Positions 34,953 through 45,679 of a DNA stretch of 64,000 nucleotides are shown in pieces. Made by a program: the position numbers and the translations under genes. The notes beneath the pieces were generated by a model. It made no database searches. It saw nothing but the letters and a program-made list of their open reading frames with translations, and was not told the DNA's origin. Positions within the stretch are counted from its first letter, which is position 1; every line of letters starts with the position of its first letter. This DNA comes from Candidatus Tayloriibacteriota bacterium (GTDB taxonomy: Bacteria > Patescibacteriota > Minisyncoccia > Phycocordibacterales > PALSA-1337), in assembly GCA_943350765.1 (NCBI GenBank), contig CALRAJ010000003.1:1456-65455 (forward strand). Direction: 5' to 3'.

Positions 34953-35798
34953 ATGGAACCACTTTCAAATAAAAAAAGACGCTTGTATTTCTATACTTAC
35001 CTGATCGTTTTCTTAGCGCTTCTACCTGTGGTGGTTTTGTTTGTTCAGGGGTATAGACTAGGTACGGGCTTTTCCATGCTTAGAGTGGGAGGGATATATG
35101 TGGGTGGTGTGGACTCTGATGTGGAAGTGTATCTGGATGGTACGAGACAGGAAAATTTAAAAAGTTTGAAAAGAGGATTTTTTGTAGAAAGTTTGGCACC
35201 CGGTACATATTCGTTGTCGATAAAAAAGGAAGGGTATAGTCAGTGGGACAAGATCGTCATAGTGGTGGGGGAAAAAGTTGTCGAAGCATACCCCTTACTT
35301 ACACCTTTGAAAATAGAGATGGTAAATATACCAAAACAGGTGGAGAGTGAGGGTGGGTTTTTTAGTTCTGCGACCTCGACTTCGTTTGTGGATAATGAGG
35401 TTTTTGCGGAAGTTTCAAAGTTGTTTGAGCAAGGCACTACCACCCAGTCGATCAAGCGACAGAGGGTAACTATTTGGAGTGAGGGTGCGAGTATCAAATA
35501 TAGGTGGGAGGACGATTTCTCGACTGTGTTCCCAGCTTTATGTGGTTATCAGAATTGTATTGCCACAAGTACTGTCTATGTGGCAAAAGAAAATATAAAT
35601 CGAGTCGGTTTTTACCCTGAGAGAAATGATGTGGTGCTATTTTCTCTCTCTGATGGTGTCTATGCAGTAGAGATAGACAGTCGTAGTCCACAAAAGATAG
35701 TCCAGATTTATTCGGGTAAAAATCCAGATTTCCGAGTAGAAGATGATGAAATTTTATATATAAAGGAGGGGGAGGATATTTTCCAGGTTGAGATCTAG
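34953..35798 (+). CDS. PEGA-domain membrane-anchored protein
   Basis: TM-GYR, VYLDG, LAPGTYSLSIKKEGYSQW. Confidence 0.8.
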   Translation: MEPLSNKKRRLYFYTYLIVFLALLPVVVLFVQGYRLGTGFSMLRVGGIYVGGVDSDVEVYLDGTRQENLKSLKRGFFVESLAPGTYSLSIKKEGYSQWDKIVIVVGEKVVEAYPLLTPLKIEMVNIPKQVESEGGFFSSATSTSFVDNEVFAEVSKLFEQGTTTQSIKRQRVTIWSEGASIKYRWEDDFSTVFPALCGYQNCIATSTVYVAKENINRVGFYPERNDVVLFSLSDGVYAVEIDSRSPQKIVQIYSGKNPDFRVEDDEILYIKEGEDIFQVEI

Positions 35799-35897
35799 TC
35801 GCTGTTTAGATTACAGCAACATAGCTAGTCATACTTGCACCCTTTAGACCTATTACGCCTATAAATAAGGTTTTTTTCCATACCTATGTCAAACCCA

Positions 35898-35926
35898 TTG
35901 ACAATCTACCTATTTGGGTGTATAAT
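35898..35926 (+). promoter_or_regulatory. consensus sigma70 promoter upstream of the DGR target
   Basis: TTGACA-N17-TATAAT. Confidence 0.8.
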
Positions 35927-35997
35927 AGGGGGTAGGGTAATAAGTCCTTTAAAAAACCAGCTTGGCTAGTCCACCTATGTGTGTAGTAGCGGAAACC

Positions 35998-36050
35998 TTC
36001 GCCACAGCACTTTGAGGCTCAATATTTGGGTATCAAAGTGCTGTGGCGAA
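35998..36050 (+). other. 18-bp perfect hairpin in the target 5' leader
   Basis: TTCGCCACAGCACTTTGA / TCAAAGTGCTGTGGCGAA. Confidence 0.8.
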
Positions 36051-36155
36051 CCGACTCCATATCTAAGTGATCCCTCGTGTATTACTGTGGCCTATGTAAG
36101 GCCTTGTGCACGAAACACTATTGATTCTGGAGACGCTGAAACCGCGCAAATACAA

Positions 36156-37545
36156 ATGAAAGAATCGACCCAAGAGCAACTGAATCAGTTTTTTGGCATA
36201 ATAGACATTTTTGGGACACAAAACTGATATACTACGGCTCTATTCAAAGGTAATTCAAATATTAACAAATATGCTTTCAAAAAAAACGCACAAGGTGTCC
36301 ATTATGTCAGTCATTGAATACAGTAAAAAATGGTAGTGGAGATCATGGCCAAAGATACAGATGTAATGATTGTAACAAGAGGTTTAGGTTGAAAGATTAC
36401 AAGAAAGAAAAAGAATCTGAATATATATGGAACGAATTTGTGTTTGCAAAGCAAACACTCAGAGAGTTGTCAGAAATATTTTCATACACTAAAAAACAAC
36501 TCCAAAGAATCTTTGATGGTATACAAATCACACAAAAGATTCACACCCCACGAGCACTACACCTCGTAGTTGATGCCACCTACTTTGGAATGAAGGAAAC
36601 TAGGCTTTGGGGAGTACTAGTTTTTCGAGATCAAACCAACAAAGAGAATCTATGGTGGCAATTCATAGATGAAGAAAGAATACACTACTACAGAGAAGGT
36701 AGAGACTACCTTCTCTCTCTGGGGTATACAATACTATCTGTCACCTGTGATGGATTCAGTGGCTTACCTGAGCTATTTTCACCCATTCCTGTACAGTTCT
36801 GTCACTTTCACCAAGCCCAGATCGTGAGAAGGTATACAACACTTAATCCGAGTTTTTTGCTCAGTTGCTGACTACCGTCAAACCTGGCCAGATGGATCAT
36901 AAACGGATGCAGGCTGCGATTAAGGACCCCCAGCTCACCGAGCGCATGTATGCGTTCGTTAATGGTTACGAGGTTGCGCCACTGCAGGTGGTTATCCCTC
37001 CAGTCGTGGAGCTGGCAACTTTTATCCCCCTCCACCTCTCGATCCCGCTCGCCACTCACAAGGCCCGCTCGATGTCGGAGCTTTTCCGCAATCGTGGCAA
37101 GGTCATCTTCTACTACCGCGATGGCGACCTCGACGGTTGGTTCACCGCGAACTCCCCACAGTGCCCAGCTGGCACCGCCTCCCTCGTCAAAACCCCCAGG
37201 GCAATGACGTTCCGGCAGATGGCGCAGTCGGCCACTGGACTCCAGTCTGAGTCCCTCGCCGACCTCTCCCGTGCCATTGTCACCAAAGGCCTCGACATCG
37301 TCCCCACCCAATGGGACGACGCTATCGGCGCCACTCAGAACGGCACGGATCTTCTCCTCGTCAACGGCTATGCCAACTTCGCTTTTACGAAGACAGACAA
37401 GAAGCTCAAAGATGAGAATCAACAGGTAGTCGTGCTCTGCGCCCGCCGCGACGACGACGGCCGGTGGGGCGCCGGCGTCTGCGGGCTCGACAACGACGAC
37501 GAGTGGAACGCCGACTACAGGCTTCTCCTCCGCAACTCGCCCTAG
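36156..37545 (+). CDS. DGR target gene with C-terminal VR, interrupted by an IS fragment
   Basis: Removing 36196-36859 gives a 241-aa ORF MKESTQEQLNQFFAQLLTTVKPG...RLLLRNSP; 3' part is ORF 36865-37545. Confidence 0.85.
36196..36850 (+). mobile_element. truncated IS256-family (Zn-binding variant) element
   Basis: CPLC...RYRCNDC, VVDATYFG, VTCDG, VQFCHFHQ; C-terminal half missing; AGTTTTTTG on both sides. Confidence 0.8.
37432..37538 (+). repeat. DGR variable region (VR)
   Basis: 107-nt ungapped match to TR; 15 of 17 mismatches at TR adenines. Confidence 0.96.
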
Positions 37546-37603
37546 GGCACTTTTGCCCTTTGACACTTCTTCCCCCAGCACTACGGTGCTGGGGGATTTT
37601 TTT
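37544..37603 (+). other. two stem-loops 3' of VR (DGR cis hairpin and/or terminator)
   Basis: AGGGCA-CTTT-TGCCCT and TCCCCCAGCAC-TACG-GTGCTGGGGGA followed by T7. Confidence 0.75.
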
Positions 37604-37786
37604 ATAAAATTTGATATACTGCCATTTAGGATTTGCTGACATACTCGGCGTAAGCTTGGTATGGCGAGTCCTGCAACATTCAAAAAAGAAATAGTTGGTG
37701 CCTCACTCTGGTGAGAAAAAGTCTCAAAATACTATTCAGCCCCAAGAGAATTCAAAGGGTGTTGTAATAGATGGAGCGAGGTACAA

Positions 37787-37893
37787 ATGCTCTACGCCAA
37801 CCGCAACGACGACGGCCAGTGGAATGCGAACGTCAACAGGCTCGACAACGACAACGAGTGGAACGCCGACAACAGGCTTCTCCTCCGCAACTC
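37787..37893 (+). repeat. DGR template region (TR)
   Basis: 10 AAY codons in the VR frame; 31 adenines in 107 nt. Confidence 0.96.
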
Positions 37894-37901
37894 TTGCTTT
37901 T

Positions 37902-37925
37902 CTCCCGCTTACTGCGGGAGTTTTT
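37902..37925 (+). terminator. hairpin/terminator 3' of TR, overlapping the avd stop
   Basis: CTCCCGC-TTACT-GCGGGAG-TTTTT. Confidence 0.6.
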
Positions 37926-38253
37926 GTTCTATGGAATAGATCCAGCCATGAAGCATCTTTCCGGCAGCGACCAATTTTTCATTTAGTAAGATAAACTTCT
38001 TGTCCTCGAATATGTTCATCTCCCAGCCAACAGATAAGAAGAATTTGATCAGATCCAAGTGCTCCTGAGCAGCCTTTATTAGAAGTATTTTTTGTTCGCC
38101 ACTACAATAGGTGGCCTGGTAAATTGACCTCAATGCCTCGGTGAAATAATCTTCAATTTTTGAAGCAATGCCAAATCGTACTGGTTTCGGTAAATTTTCG
38201 CTGTATGTAAACCATAGAGAATATGTTTCTTTCAGGTGTTGTAGCACTGGCAA
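37909..38253 (-). CDS. avd: DGR accessory variability determinant (Avd-like four-helix bundle)
   Basis: LPKPVRFGIASKIE, LDLIKFFL, GKMLHGW; between TR and RT; likely true start 38308 is out of frame at G10. Confidence 0.85.
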   Translation of the reverse strand: MPVLQHLKETYSLWFTYSENLPKPVRFGIASKIEDYFTEALRSIYQATYCSGEQKILLIKAAQEHLDLIKFFLSVGWEMNIFEDKKFILLNEKLVAAGKMLHGWIYSIEQKLPQ

Positions 38254-38284
38254 AATCGTGCGGGGGGGGGGTAGACTTTGTAGT

Positions 38285-39319
38285 ATGGCTCGGATTCAAC
38301 TGATTCATACCTATCAGCATATCATTTCTGTTGAAAATTTGCTTTCAGCGTTGAGAGAATTTACCAAGGGCAAAAAGCAGAAAAAAGATGTCCAACAATT
38401 CTCACTTCGTCTGATGGATAATATTTTGAAACTCCATCGAGATCTTGCGGATAGAACTTATGTACATGGAGATTATCACGCTTTCAATATTTCCGATCCA
38501 AAGCCACGCAATATTCACAAAGCACTGGTGCGAGACAGACTGGTACATCACGCTATATACAGAGTGTTGTGCCCCTTTTTTGACCGTACTTTCATCAGTG
38601 ATTCGTATTCGTGTCGTCTGTATAAAGGCACACATCGAGCACTGAATCGGTTTAGGGATTTTGGACAAAAAGTTTCAAAAAATAACACACGCACCTGTTG
38701 GGTTTTGAAATGTGATGTGAGGAAGTTTTTTGCTTCTATTGACCACGGCGTCTTGTTCGCTATTCTAGAGCAGTATATTCCAGATAAAGATATCCTATGG
38801 CTACTCACTCGAGTGATCGATAGTTTCCATTCTACCCGTTTTGGTGTCGGACTTCCTCTCGGCAATCTCACATCACAGCTTCTAGTGAATATTTATATGA
38901 ACGAGTTTGACCAGTATATGAAGCATCGGCTTAAGGCCAAACACTATATTCGATATGCTGACGATTTTGTTATTTTGAGTAATGATAAAAAACGGCTCGA
39001 AAATATTTTGATAGAAATTAGTGACTTTTTGCAAGTAAAGCTTCGCCTGAATCTTCATCCAGACAAAGTGTTCATAAAAACATTTGCATCAGGTGTAGAT
39101 TTCCTTGGCTGGGTACACTTTTCTGACCATAGGGTACTGAGGACTTCCACCAAGAAAAGAATGTTTAAACGATTGGCTGAGGGAGAGGTATCGGAGACGA
39201 CCATCCTTTCGTATTTAGGCATGCTGAGTCATGGTAATGGGATGGGGTTGCAAGAGATGATTACTGGGCTGTCAGGATTGAATTTGGCTGGCGGAGGTAT
39301 GAGTGATAGTAAAACTTAA
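38285..39319 (+). CDS. DGR reverse transcriptase
   Basis: KPRNI, RDRLVHHA, KCDVRKFFASIDH, GLPLGNLTSQ, YIRYADDF, DFLG. Confidence 0.95.
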   Translation: MARIQLIHTYQHIISVENLLSALREFTKGKKQKKDVQQFSLRLMDNILKLHRDLADRTYVHGDYHAFNISDPKPRNIHKALVRDRLVHHAIYRVLCPFFDRTFISDSYSCRLYKGTHRALNRFRDFGQKVSKNNTRTCWVLKCDVRKFFASIDHGVLFAILEQYIPDKDILWLLTRVIDSFHSTRFGVGLPLGNLTSQLLVNIYMNEFDQYMKHRLKAKHYIRYADDFVILSNDKKRLENILIEISDFLQVKLRLNLHPDKVFIKTFASGVDFLGWVHFSDHRVLRTSTKKRMFKRLAEGEVSETTILSYLGMLSHGNGMGLQEMITGLSGLNLAGGGMSDSKT

Positions 39320-40599
39320 TTCTCACATTTTCCAGCATTCTCGCCCGCGAGGTATCCAGTAGTCCAGCATATCTGTAGGCTATATCCGCCCGAAGGTCGG
39401 TCAAAGTTTAGGATATCACCAACGCAGTAGAGATTGGGGTATATTTTTGACTGCATGGTTTTGAAATCTATTTCCTCAAGGGCTAGTCCGCCACTCGTAA
39501 CGATGGCTTTTTCGAGTCCGAGGAGCTTTTTGACTTGGCAGGGAAGCTGTTTTAAACTCTTGACAAGTATCAGACGGCTGACCTTACTTATTTTATTGAC
39601 ATATTCTTCTGGATGAATGGTAAGTAATGATAAAATACCCGCAGTCATTTTTGGAGAAACGATCATACCGAGGACATTCTTAAACTTTTTATTTTGATTG
39701 ATCTCAAAGATACTGCGTATGTGTGTGTCTAGGGCAAGATGATCTATATTTGGAAATAGGTCGATATTCAATTTTACCTCTCCATACTTGAGTAGCTCAC
39801 CGATATCTTTACTCATATTGAGTATGAGTGGACCACTAAGTCCAAAATGGGTAAAAAGGATTTTACCATTTTTAGAAAACTGTTGTATATCGTTTTGAAA
39901 TACGGATACACGAGCGTCTTTGATACTGACACCTTGAGTCTGTTTTATCCAAGCGTCTTTGACCTCGAGTGGTACGAGGGCTACATCCGGCTCGATGACC
40001 TTGTGACCTATTTTTTGTAGCCAGAGAAAACCTTCACCAGTCGAGCCTGTCTCTGGGCGAGATTTACCACCTGTCGCTAAAATGTATTTTTTTGCATGTA
40101 AAGTTTTACCATTTGAAATCGTAACACCAATAATCTGCCCATCTTTTTCTTCAAAGCCTGTTACTTCGGTATTTGATCGGATCTCAACATTATTTTTTCG
40201 CATGTACTCGACTAAAGTATCCCAGACACTTTGTGCTTTGTCGCTCATAGGGAAGACACGCTGTTCCGCCTCTATCTTGGTCGGCATATTTTTTAGGTGA
40301 AAAAAGTCGAGGGATTCTGCTACACCAAATTTAGACAAAGGAGAAAATAAAAATTTACCTTTGTCGCCGAGTTTACCGACGAGCTTGCGAATATCAAATT
40401 CGGCATTGGTAACATTGCATCTGCCACCGCCTGTGATGAGGAGTTTTTTGCCTAGAGTTTCATTTTTCTCTACCAAAAGCACTCTGGCACCACTTTCCCC
40501 AGCTTTACCAGCAGATATCATGCCTGCTGGACCGCCACCTATTACTATCACATCCCAGACCAGCTCTTTTTTGGGAGTTTTTTTGCCTAGAGAGTTCAT
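39316..40599 (-). CDS. HI0933/BaiN-family NAD(P)/FAD oxidoreductase
   Basis: GGGPAG, GKKLLITGGGRCNVTN, ATGGKS, GGYSLQ. Confidence 0.93.
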   Translation of the reverse strand: MNSLGKKTPKKELVWDVIVIGGGPAGMISAGKAGESGARVLLVEKNETLGKKLLITGGGRCNVTNAEFDIRKLVGKLGDKGKFLFSPLSKFGVAESLDFFHLKNMPTKIEAEQRVFPMSDKAQSVWDTLVEYMRKNNVEIRSNTEVTGFEEKDGQIIGVTISNGKTLHAKKYILATGGKSRPETGSTGEGFLWLQKIGHKVIEPDVALVPLEVKDAWIKQTQGVSIKDARVSVFQNDIQQFSKNGKILFTHFGLSGPLILNMSKDIGELLKYGEVKLNIDLFPNIDHLALDTHIRSIFEINQNKKFKNVLGMIVSPKMTAGILSLLTIHPEEYVNKISKVSRLILVKSLKQLPCQVKKLLGLEKAIVTSGGLALEEIDFKTMQSKIYPNLYCVGDILNFDRPSGGYSLQICWTTGYLAGENAGKCEN

Positions 40600-44482: not shown

Positions 44483-45679
44483 TTATGCTTTCTTTCGATC
44501 ACCCTTTGGGATTTGCCTACTACCAACTGGACGAACTAACGGCATTCTTTCAAGTTTGCGTACTTCGTTCGCGAGTTTTCTTAGGGTAATTTCCTGAATC
44601 TGGCGGACCCGCTCTCGGGTGATACCAAACTTTAAGCCGACCTCCTCGAGGGTTTTCTCGTCGCCACCGTCGAGACCGTACCGATAGCGGATAATAGTCG
44701 CTTCTCGGGGGACTAAGGTCAAAACTATTTTCTGCACCATGGCACAATTGATTTTTTTCTCGAGCTCATCAGAAGGATCCTCGGCAGTCTCATCGGCGAC
44801 CACATCAATGAGTCTATTGGAATCCTCGTCGTTTCCCAGACTGCCATTTAGAGGGGCTGGGCTAGCTACTCCATGAGCTAGTCGCAGTTGAGCGATTTTC
44901 TCTGCCGTTGTCCCAAGCTCATCTGCCACTTCGGCATCCGCAGGCTCGCGTCCCAGCAACTCCTGCAACTTCGCAGTCGTTTTACGGACATGAAAGAGCT
45001 TGTCTACGATATGTACGGGTAGGCGGATGGTCTTGGACTGGTTGGCAAGCGCCCGCTTGATCGCCTGCTTGATCCACCACGCCGCGTAGGTGGAAAGCTT
45101 GGCGCCCTTACTGGGATCAAAGCGTTCGACTGCCTTCATGAGACCGATGTTACCCTCGCTGACGAGGTCGAGTAGAGGCACGCCGTAGTTTTCGTAGTCG
45201 CGGGCGATTTTCACCACCAGCCGAAGATTCGCTTTGATCATGTGTTCCCGTGCCTCCTTGTCGCCCCGCTTGATGCGTGCTGCTAGGTCGATTTCGTCTT
45301 GTGGCGTCAAGAGTGGGGTTTCCGCGATTTCGCGTAGATACAGCTGGAAGCTTGTACCGCCGTCGTAAGCACCTCGCACAATGACAGGTTCAGAGGGCAA
45401 TACCCCCTCGCGTGGAAACTTTAGGTATGATCGTTCAGGTACGACATGCCCAACTGCAAGAGTTTTTTCCTTAGGCACTTTGACTTTCGGAACCATCTTT
45501 TTCTTCAGATTAGGCTTTTTGTACTTTTTGGGTACCTTTTTTGCCGTTACCACCAACTTTACTGGAGATGCTTTACGGTGAGCGTGTCGTGGTCGGACGA
45601 CACTTCCTTTACGACCAACACACAACACCACTGAATTTGTGAGATGGTGTCTACCGTTTCCGACAATTTCTTGCTCCAT
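44483..45679 (-). CDS. RpoD/RpoS-type (group 1/2) sigma factor
   Basis: LYLREI, ANLRLVV, GNIGLMKAVERFD, STYAAWWIKQAI, TRERVRQI. Confidence 0.92.
   Translation of the reverse strand: MEQEIVGNGRHHLTNSVVLCVGRKGSVVRPRHAHRKASPVKLVVTAKKVPKKYKKPNLKKKMVPKVKVPKEKTLAVGHVVPERSYLKFPREGVLPSEPVIVRGAYDGGTSFQLYLREIAETPLLTPQDEIDLAARIKRGDKEAREHMIKANLRLVVKIARDYENYGVPLLDLVSEGNIGLMKAVERFDPSKGAKLSTYAAWWIKQAIKRALANQSKTIRLPVHIVDKLFHVRKTTAKLQELLGREPADAEVADELGTTAEKIAQLRLAHGVASPAPLNGSLGNDEDSNRLIDVVADETAEDPSDELEKKINCAMVQKIVLTLVPREATIIRYRYGLDGGDEKTLEEVGLKFGITRERVRQIQEITLRKLANEVRKLERMPLVRPVGSRQIPKGDRKKA

Follow-up and report, generated by a model that had tools for sequence, protein, structure and literature searches.

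A diversity-generating retroelement of the CPR type with an IS256-split target and a template RNA that probably primes its own copying from upstream of the template repeat

How is copying of the template repeat (TR) primed in the diversity-generating retroelements (DGRs) of candidate phyla radiation (CPR) bacteria? The only DGR priming mechanism that has been worked out needs avd RNA before the TR and a 140-nucleotide (nt) spacer behind it, and in about 90% of the catalogued CPR DGRs avd is reversed and there is no such spacer, which poses the question of how priming occurs in them. We examined a DGR of this kind in a 64,000-nt stretch of DNA from a Candidatus Tayloriibacteriota bacterium (assembly GCA_943350765.1, contig CALRAJ010000003.1, positions 1,456 to 65,455 of the forward strand), hereafter the window, whose numbering is used throughout. 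An initial annotation of the window had recognized the element and missed a break in its target gene by an insertion sequence (IS) of the IS256 family, the antisense orientation of avd and the structured RNA around the TR. We propose that this is a CPR-type DGR with an IS256-split target, in which a separate template RNA of about 300 nt probably primes its own copying from upstream of the TR. Were this true, DGR-based protein diversification would gain a convenient part in a compact template RNA that has its own ends.

The repeat pair and its mutation pattern

The cassette consists of the following features, in addition to the target gene and the RNA elements that are listed further below.

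37432–37538, + strand: variable region (VR), aligned to the TR without gaps over 107 nt
37544–37559, no strand assigned: short GC-rich inverted repeat after the VR, found by folding; candidate target-recognition hairpin
37571–37604, + strand: terminator-like hairpin (37571–37596) and T run ending the target gene, from a terminator scan
37787–37893, + strand: TR, aligned to the VR without gaps; predicted first copied base 37888
37909–38253, − strand: avd accessory gene, 114 aa, antisense to the TR and divergent from the reverse transcriptase (RT) gene (PF22296, NF033474)
38285–39319, + strand: DGR RT, 344 aa, uninterrupted (PF00078; best PDB match bRT, 8ub7)

The element is a real DGR. Gapless alignment confirmed the repeat coordinates, the length of 107 nt and the 17 mismatches, 15 of them at adenines, that had been described, and the translations of the VR and of the TR frame came out as quoted; the stem-loops said to follow the VR are the two structures after it in the list. 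The mismatches comprise 12 A>G, 2 A>T, 1 A>C, 1 T>C and 1 G>C, so that 15/31 TR adenines are changed, compared to 2/76 other bases (Fisher p 3.8e-8). As the initial annotation had remarked, the changes lie mostly in AAY codons (11/15 in AAC or AAT). None of the 31 TR adenines occupies codon position 3, no change of an adenine can create a stop codon, and the TR can encode about 1e18 protein variants by computation. The VR lies at the 3′ end of a coding gene, ending 4 nt before the stop codon, and the final 22 nt of the repeat are the same in VR and TR, resembling the unmutated 3′ end known as the initiation of mutagenic homing (IMH) element, a function that is predicted here. The two non-A mismatches (37470 and 37473) occupy the third positions of adjacent codons, for which TR drift following the last homing is one explanation. 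Across 67 related loci and three in the source genome, 1136/1222 substitutions fall at TR adenines, the commonest change being A>G (714/1136).

The template RNA and its proposed priming

The TR sits within a conserved structured RNA, apparently unpublished, whose topology is well supported by covariation. Its elements, with P1, P2, the single strand and P3 taken from the leader alignment, are as follows.

37612–37620, + strand: extended −10-like motif (TG-n-TATACT), seen by eye; may serve as promoter of the TR RNA
37683–37697, + strand: 5′ strand of the long-range helix P0, predicted primer strand, pairing with 37888–37902 (covariation tests)
37698–37784, + strand: three-helix leader (covariation in aligned leaders)
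37698–37709 with 37773–37784, + strand: P1, 12 bp, predicted stop duplex
37713–37725, + strand: P2
37726–37738, + strand: 13-nt A-rich single strand
37739–37760, + strand: P3
37902–37925, + strand: hairpin and T run directly after the TR; predicted terminator, possible Avd-binding stem-loop

The alignment holds 60 leaders, namely 58 related loci, the window and an RT-less module of the same genome that is described below; some loci with long inserts or no anchor were omitted. Two-sided (compensatory) changes are found at 19/21 pairs in the three helices, and 96.8% of leader cells are paired, compared to 72% in shuffles (0/500 as high) and 32–53% in slid controls. The leader model matches in 29/151 genomes of the class. 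Rfam gave no family at its gathering score. Its motifs RT-1 to RT-19 are structured RNAs near RT genes, which Weinberg et al. 2017 (PMC5737381), in the passages on them, suggest to be DGR or retron parts; none matched at 35500–39600 at E up to 5, or at the genome's two other loci (the RT-less module and a second DGR) at E up to 1. A hairpin with a T run follows the TR in 69/70 loci, at a median of 34 nt, compared to 41/335 control windows in RT genes, and so there is no room for a 140-nt spacer (Sp) of the kind found in the Bordetella phage BPP-1. Accordingly, no BPP-1-type Sp of about 140 nt lies downstream of the window TR, where hairpin, T run and antisense avd come within about 35 nt. At the other end, TG-n-TATACT was missed by a promoter scan requiring a −35 element, and a similar motif is present in the 70-locus consensus. 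One RNA-library contig covers 37638–37841 with no differences, at a depth of 25 compared to 2–5 for the three other contigs of that run, which belongs to the same study as the sample that may be the source; such contigs carry neither strand nor ends nor expression level.

The single strand at the 5′ end of the leader is complementary to the 3′ end of the TR plus the 12 bases that follow, forming P0. Across the 65 of 69 loci that had anchors, cognate duplexes (−6.78 kcal/mol) are more stable than swapped ones (−4.89 kcal/mol; 0/20000 permutations), and in the full alignment 85.2% of P0 cells are paired over 13 chosen pairs, compared to 41–54% in slid registers. Among 32 disjoint sister pairs on the RT tree, chosen to limit kinship effects, 36/74 changes on the 5′ side are compensated, compared to 2–10 in six slid registers. 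A further pairing, of the leader 3′ end with antisense codons of avd, gave no cognate signal and was dropped.

The limits of VR/TR identity were then placed relative to these helices in 42 loci with a leader-independent anchor. Identity at non-A positions lasts to position −4 (3/41 changed) and breaks at −3 (5/6 changed) and −1 (25/29). The last base of the identity faces an invariant G (in the window this base is 37888), and the break comes no more than three bases further on. The invariant G itself is 37697, just before P1, and at its other end the identity starts 3–5 nt past P1.

This arrangement can be compared to that of BPP-1, whose DGR has a homologous RT and Avd and likewise makes A-to-N changes (PDB 8ub7). 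In the passages of Handa et al. (bioRxiv 10.1101/2023.10.23.563531) on the Bordetella RNA, Sp47-56 acts as primer while paired with the 3′ end of the TR, the required G57 stands opposite the first copied base, and Sp59-70 pairs with the sequence before the TR and stops copying, with the primer strand two bases from this stop duplex; next come a short hairpin, then a ring of 13 nt and a stem that binds the RT, Sp3-33 forms the Avd-binding hairpin, and copying ends at avd383-387, past the duplex ending at avd379. As far as those passages go, the window RNA shares with Sp47-140 a primer strand, a stop duplex of about 12 bp, a short hairpin, a 13-nt single strand and a further stem, and in both systems a stem-loop comes right after the TR. 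By the same account, the Sp-type elements lie before the TR in the window and behind it in BPP-1, and the antisense avd of the window, unlike that of BPP-1, contributes no RNA to the stop duplex. The likeness to the BPP-1 RNA, as described there, is one of order and geometry, not of sequence homology to Sp.

The element order, and likewise the two limits of VR/TR identity, agree with a circularly permuted Bordetella avd-TR-Sp RNA, and by this analogy the window RNA is likely to be such a permuted form, primed from upstream. It would start at about 37628, end with the hairpin and U run (37902–37925) and be bound by RT and Avd, with the leader strand 37683–37697 and the TR 3′ end (37888–37902) forming the template:primer duplex. 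Copying would begin near 37888 off a nucleotide at 37693–37696, the candidate priming base being 37696 or 37693, possibly through its 2′-OH; it would misread adenines and halt just before P1, and the complementary DNA (cDNA) would take the place of the VR. This model specifies the helices, the start (37888) and the stop and is thus directly testable. The literature searched, with the supplements of Handa et al. and Wu et al. outside its scope, gave no description of the leader or of upstream priming; Handa et al., in the part of the preprint that concerns this, looked at only 40 nt before the TR, so that the leader would be missed.

Several observations weigh against upstream priming by this RNA. 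A locus's own P0 partner ranked first in only 4/65 loci, P0 contains two regularly mismatched positions (excluded from the 13-pair count), and its covariation score of 0.29 is well below that of the leader, 0.81. An earlier unanchored pairing scan over 28 window pairs reached a best z of only −2.8; its windows cut across P0, and the anchored test took its place. The base predicted to prime is, according to register, U or A and not clearly A as in Bordetella. The T run after the TR overlaps the last codons of avd, and the hairpin may be simply an Avd-binding loop, with the RNA continuing antisense to avd. The predicted isoelectric point of Avd is 7.0, compared to 9.5 +/- 0.7 in the relevant passage of Wu et al. 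2018 (PMC5758913). Finally, no VR differences are among those listed for contigs from two DNA runs (X1 and X2), and contigs drop rare variants.

Two other ways of priming have to be considered. The RNA could be structured as proposed and the primer could come from elsewhere (its own 3′ end, nicked target DNA or a protein), with P0 positioning or protecting the TR end. The candidate primer base is no conserved A at the Bordetella distance, and the invariant P0 pairs are unable to show covariation, both of which would suit such a primer; however, the 3′ limit of VR/TR identity lies opposite the invariant G before P1, the place of the required SpG57 in the Bordetella RNA as described, and we regard a primer from elsewhere as unlikely. 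Alternatively, priming could be Bordetella-like, from RNA downstream of the TR that is read through antisense to avd, with the leader only binding protein or stabilizing the RNA. Handa et al., in the passage concerned, predict downstream stem-loops and upstream–downstream duplexes in 207/278 Avd-bearing DGRs, CPR elements being said to be included, and the RNA 3′ ends given for the window are predictions. Yet, besides the hairpin and T run after nearly every TR, the 60 nt before the TR show no locus-specific pairing to the 10–120 nt after it, the 12 nt before the TR are already paired inside the leader (P1), and the TR 3′ end is taken up by P0, which makes downstream priming improbable. Upstream priming by the permuted RNA is therefore the explanation that we prefer.

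The target gene and its interruption

The target gene and its surroundings contain the following features.

35898–35926, + strand: consensus sigma-70 promoter TTGACA-17-TATAAT, 12/12 matches; likely target-gene promoter
35998–36050, no strand assigned: 25-bp inverted repeat upstream of the target (repeat search)
36156–36194, + strand: 5′ piece of the target gene, 13 codons (alignment to homologues)
36187–36194, + strand: left copy of an 8-bp target-site duplication (flank comparison)
36195–36850, + strand: truncated IS256-family element, variant Zn-binding type (NCBIfam NF048019 match)
36314–36871, + strand: open reading frame (ORF) of a transposase fragment (NF048019, 158 bits, cutoff 150, profile 7–183 of 304)
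36851–36858, + strand: right copy of the 8-bp duplication (flank comparison)
36859–37545, + strand: 3′ piece of the target gene, 228 codons (homologue alignment)

The initial annotation had taken the target to be a small, GC-rich protein. That ORF, however, covers no more than the 3′ piece of the target gene, and the first 13 codons lie across the IS. The target homologues run about 15 residues longer at the N-terminus than the 3′ piece, and 9–10/13 residues of the upstream codons are identical to the N-termini of four homologues (1/13, ungapped, for a fifth with a longer N-terminus). Before the insertion, the gene had 241 codons by count. Its GC-richness is no oddity, since target GC exceeds RT GC in 63/66 loci. 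Because IS256 splits the target after codon 13, this DGR's own target is probably crippled, and the diversified gene probably yields no full-length protein here; a shortened protein might still be made from a start at 36865, which overlaps the transposase stop. The break is a common kind of decay, and in the passage of Wu et al. 2018 (PMC5758913) on their selection over half of the candidate DGRs were discarded as damaged or incomplete.

The left inverted repeat of the IS is present, and the right ~425 nt with the right inverted repeat are gone from the window copy; the genome's other copy reaches the right inverted repeat and has its own, different 8-bp duplication. The deletion stops precisely where the right target duplication begins, and there are 2 nt of microhomology; this suggests that the event was end-directed.

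The junction of IS and target could also be an assembly error, with the target intact in life. The IS body is collapsed in run X1 (depth 16.6, compared to 7.6–9.4 in the flanks), and the assembly's contigs C2 and C3 break inside the other IS copy, as such an error would lead one to expect. The same 8-bp duplication nevertheless stands on both flanks, different from the pair at the other copy; the left junction is bridged in run X2 (36162–36852), the right junction is crossed by contigs of two samples, and no contig joint omits the IS. Although the contig cover on the left of the right junction is 28–30 letters, below the 31-letter rule, which counts against the split, we consider an assembly error quite improbable and hold to a target gene that is interrupted in the genome.

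The arms of the upstream inverted repeat recur before the target of the RT-less module and before 13/69 targets examined; the copies at 35998–36050 and L001:3478–3529 (in the RT-less module) have conserved 11-bp outer arms and a variable core. It is possibly an operator or an RNA leader. The same perfect promoter is found ahead of the RT-less module's target.

We next looked at the fold of the target. In the 226-aa ORF, AlphaFold2 places an alpha/beta domain at residues ~54–226, whose last strands hold the VR; the mean confidence (pLDDT) of the model for the 3′ piece is 91 with a 104-sequence alignment and 35 with 6 sequences. C-type lectin and related folds dominate the hit lists of both fold searches, with TvpA (PDB 2y3c) at the top of the wide search (Z 4.6, root mean square deviation 4.0, 146 aligned), a weak likeness, tied with other entries and under the tool's threshold of about 8. 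In TvpA of Treponema denticola and other DGR targets that have a C-type-lectin fold, the VR likewise lies in the C-terminal strands. Foldseek with the target model gave no match at E 0.001 or better, nothing named was found in a viral fold library and the ESM Atlas, and the protein matches no Pfam, NCBIfam or PHROG family. The C-type lectin fold that had been expected is thus weakly supported, and the model suggests that the target likely presents a lectin-like binding surface. PHROGs gave no phage-specific family for the target, for one homologue or for any of 7 genes nearby, of which two had generic hits.

The cassette family and related modules

The RT carries the DGR-type motifs that had been read in it (LGNLTSQ at residue 192, YADD at 224), and its best solved relative is the Bordetella phage bRT (E 6.6e-44, compared to 2.4e-21 for the next entry). 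The presence of an Avd-like gene also stood, without remark in the initial annotation on its opposite strand; its frame, like that of the RT, is intact. Avd matches PF22296 (E 7e-9, 36.6 bits, cutoff 40) and NF033474 (E 3.4e-13, 49.8 bits, cutoff 80), i.e., significantly, yet below both curated cutoffs. A species-genome scan returned 407 RT relatives, most of them with CPR or Patescibacteria names, of which the best 80 were kept. An antisense avd precedes the RT in 77/80 of these, the remaining 3 being cut by contig ends, and an A-specific TR/VR pair is found at 67/80 of these RT loci, most others being cut by contig ends.

The order target-VR, TR, antisense avd, RT matches architecture B3, TR-(avd)-RT, which makes up 90% of the CPR set described in Wu et al. 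2018 (PMC5758913). In the text of Roux et al. 2021 (PMC8144416) on it, DGR clade 2 is restricted to CPR and has targets without recognizable domains. The window shares with the CPR B3 DGRs and clade 2, as these passages describe them, the order, the orientation, the chromosomal non-phage setting and the small domainless target; the likeness to clade 2 is drawn from these described features and not from placement by a tree. The window copy differs from the B3 norm in the IS256 split of its target, and the passages of both papers make no mention of a leader RNA, a long-range duplex or a terminator behind the TR. Since the layout is the published CPR norm, the cassette is ordinary, and its description as a DGR of an established CPR type is supported. 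That it is no DGR, and that an ordinary duplication happens to lie beside a group II intron or retron RT, is effectively refuted: TIGR04416 (group II intron RT/maturase) is the RT's best NCBIfam match at 143.8 bits, but this falls short of the cutoff, 300, the nearest solved relative, by more than 20 orders of magnitude, is bRT rather than a group II intron or retron RT, whose proximity the initial annotation had named as a possible objection, and the A-specificity and the avd beside the RT in nearly all relatives stand against it.

A self-search of the assembly, which is dominated by many families of short palindromic repeats, found the RT-less module, a VR-leader-TR-hairpin unit about 57 kb from the window TR, and two further loci.

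L001:3414–4835 (contig C3 of the source assembly, about 95.4–96.8 kb): RT-less module without avd or RT; promoter, inverted repeat, 216-aa target, VR, leader, TR, terminator-like hairpin, then a TatD-like gene
L002:8166–10274 (end of contig C8): second B3 DGR, with an RT 47% identical to that of the window

In the RT-less module, VR and TR differ at 5/127 positions, 4 of them at A. Its leader, which belonged to the training set of the model, folds alike, and two RNA libraries, both from one study, yielded contigs over its leader and TR. In the second DGR, 13/13 mismatches are at A, and at 20.7 bits the leader is a divergent one. Positions 1–342 of contig C1 carry a target piece that is nearly identical, with 20/21 mismatches at A and a VR from which 1 nt is deleted. 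The initial annotation had suggested a search of the genome for remote VRs; none for the window TR was found across the 756-kb assembly, where the best other site agrees at 41/76 non-A bases.

If the template RNA stands apart from avd and RT in this way, a single RT-Avd pair could work in trans on several templates, and it is possible that the window RT serves the RT-less module, although the VR of this module differs from its TR at only 5/127 bases. The broader idea, that in CPR DGRs the template RNA is a stand-alone, circularly permuted one primed from its 5′ leader, that one RT-Avd pair serves several templates and that the window RT and Avd, with their own target broken, would drive the module 57 kb away, we offer only tentatively and think rather doubtful. 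Outside the source genome, 28 of 34 leader matches have avd and RT beside them (one only as a remnant), 1 lies at a contig end and 5 are without an intact RT. Four RT-less VR/TR modules (L121, L123, L124 and L125) are all in genomes with an uninterrupted RT elsewhere, with mismatches at A of 14/14, 13/14, 21/22 and 16/18, respectively (at G154:C1, G142:C19, G119:C6 and G076:C1); two keep remnants of avd or RT, and one keeps a whole avd. In genomes G039 and G163, the cassettes are decayed and an intact RT was not found. The modules in relatives look like decay, which explains them equally well, and RT-less templates as a general strategy were not supported.

Two minor observations concern other material. 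A contig of run X4, from another study, extends over 37024–38278 and represents a related DGR, with VR differences mostly at TR-adenine positions and a 12-nt insertion ahead of the VR; runs X4–X6 hold small shares only, which do not indicate the habitat. Further along the window, the ORF list contains on the − strand (44483–45679) what we take to be a sigma-70-like protein with a long N-terminal extension.

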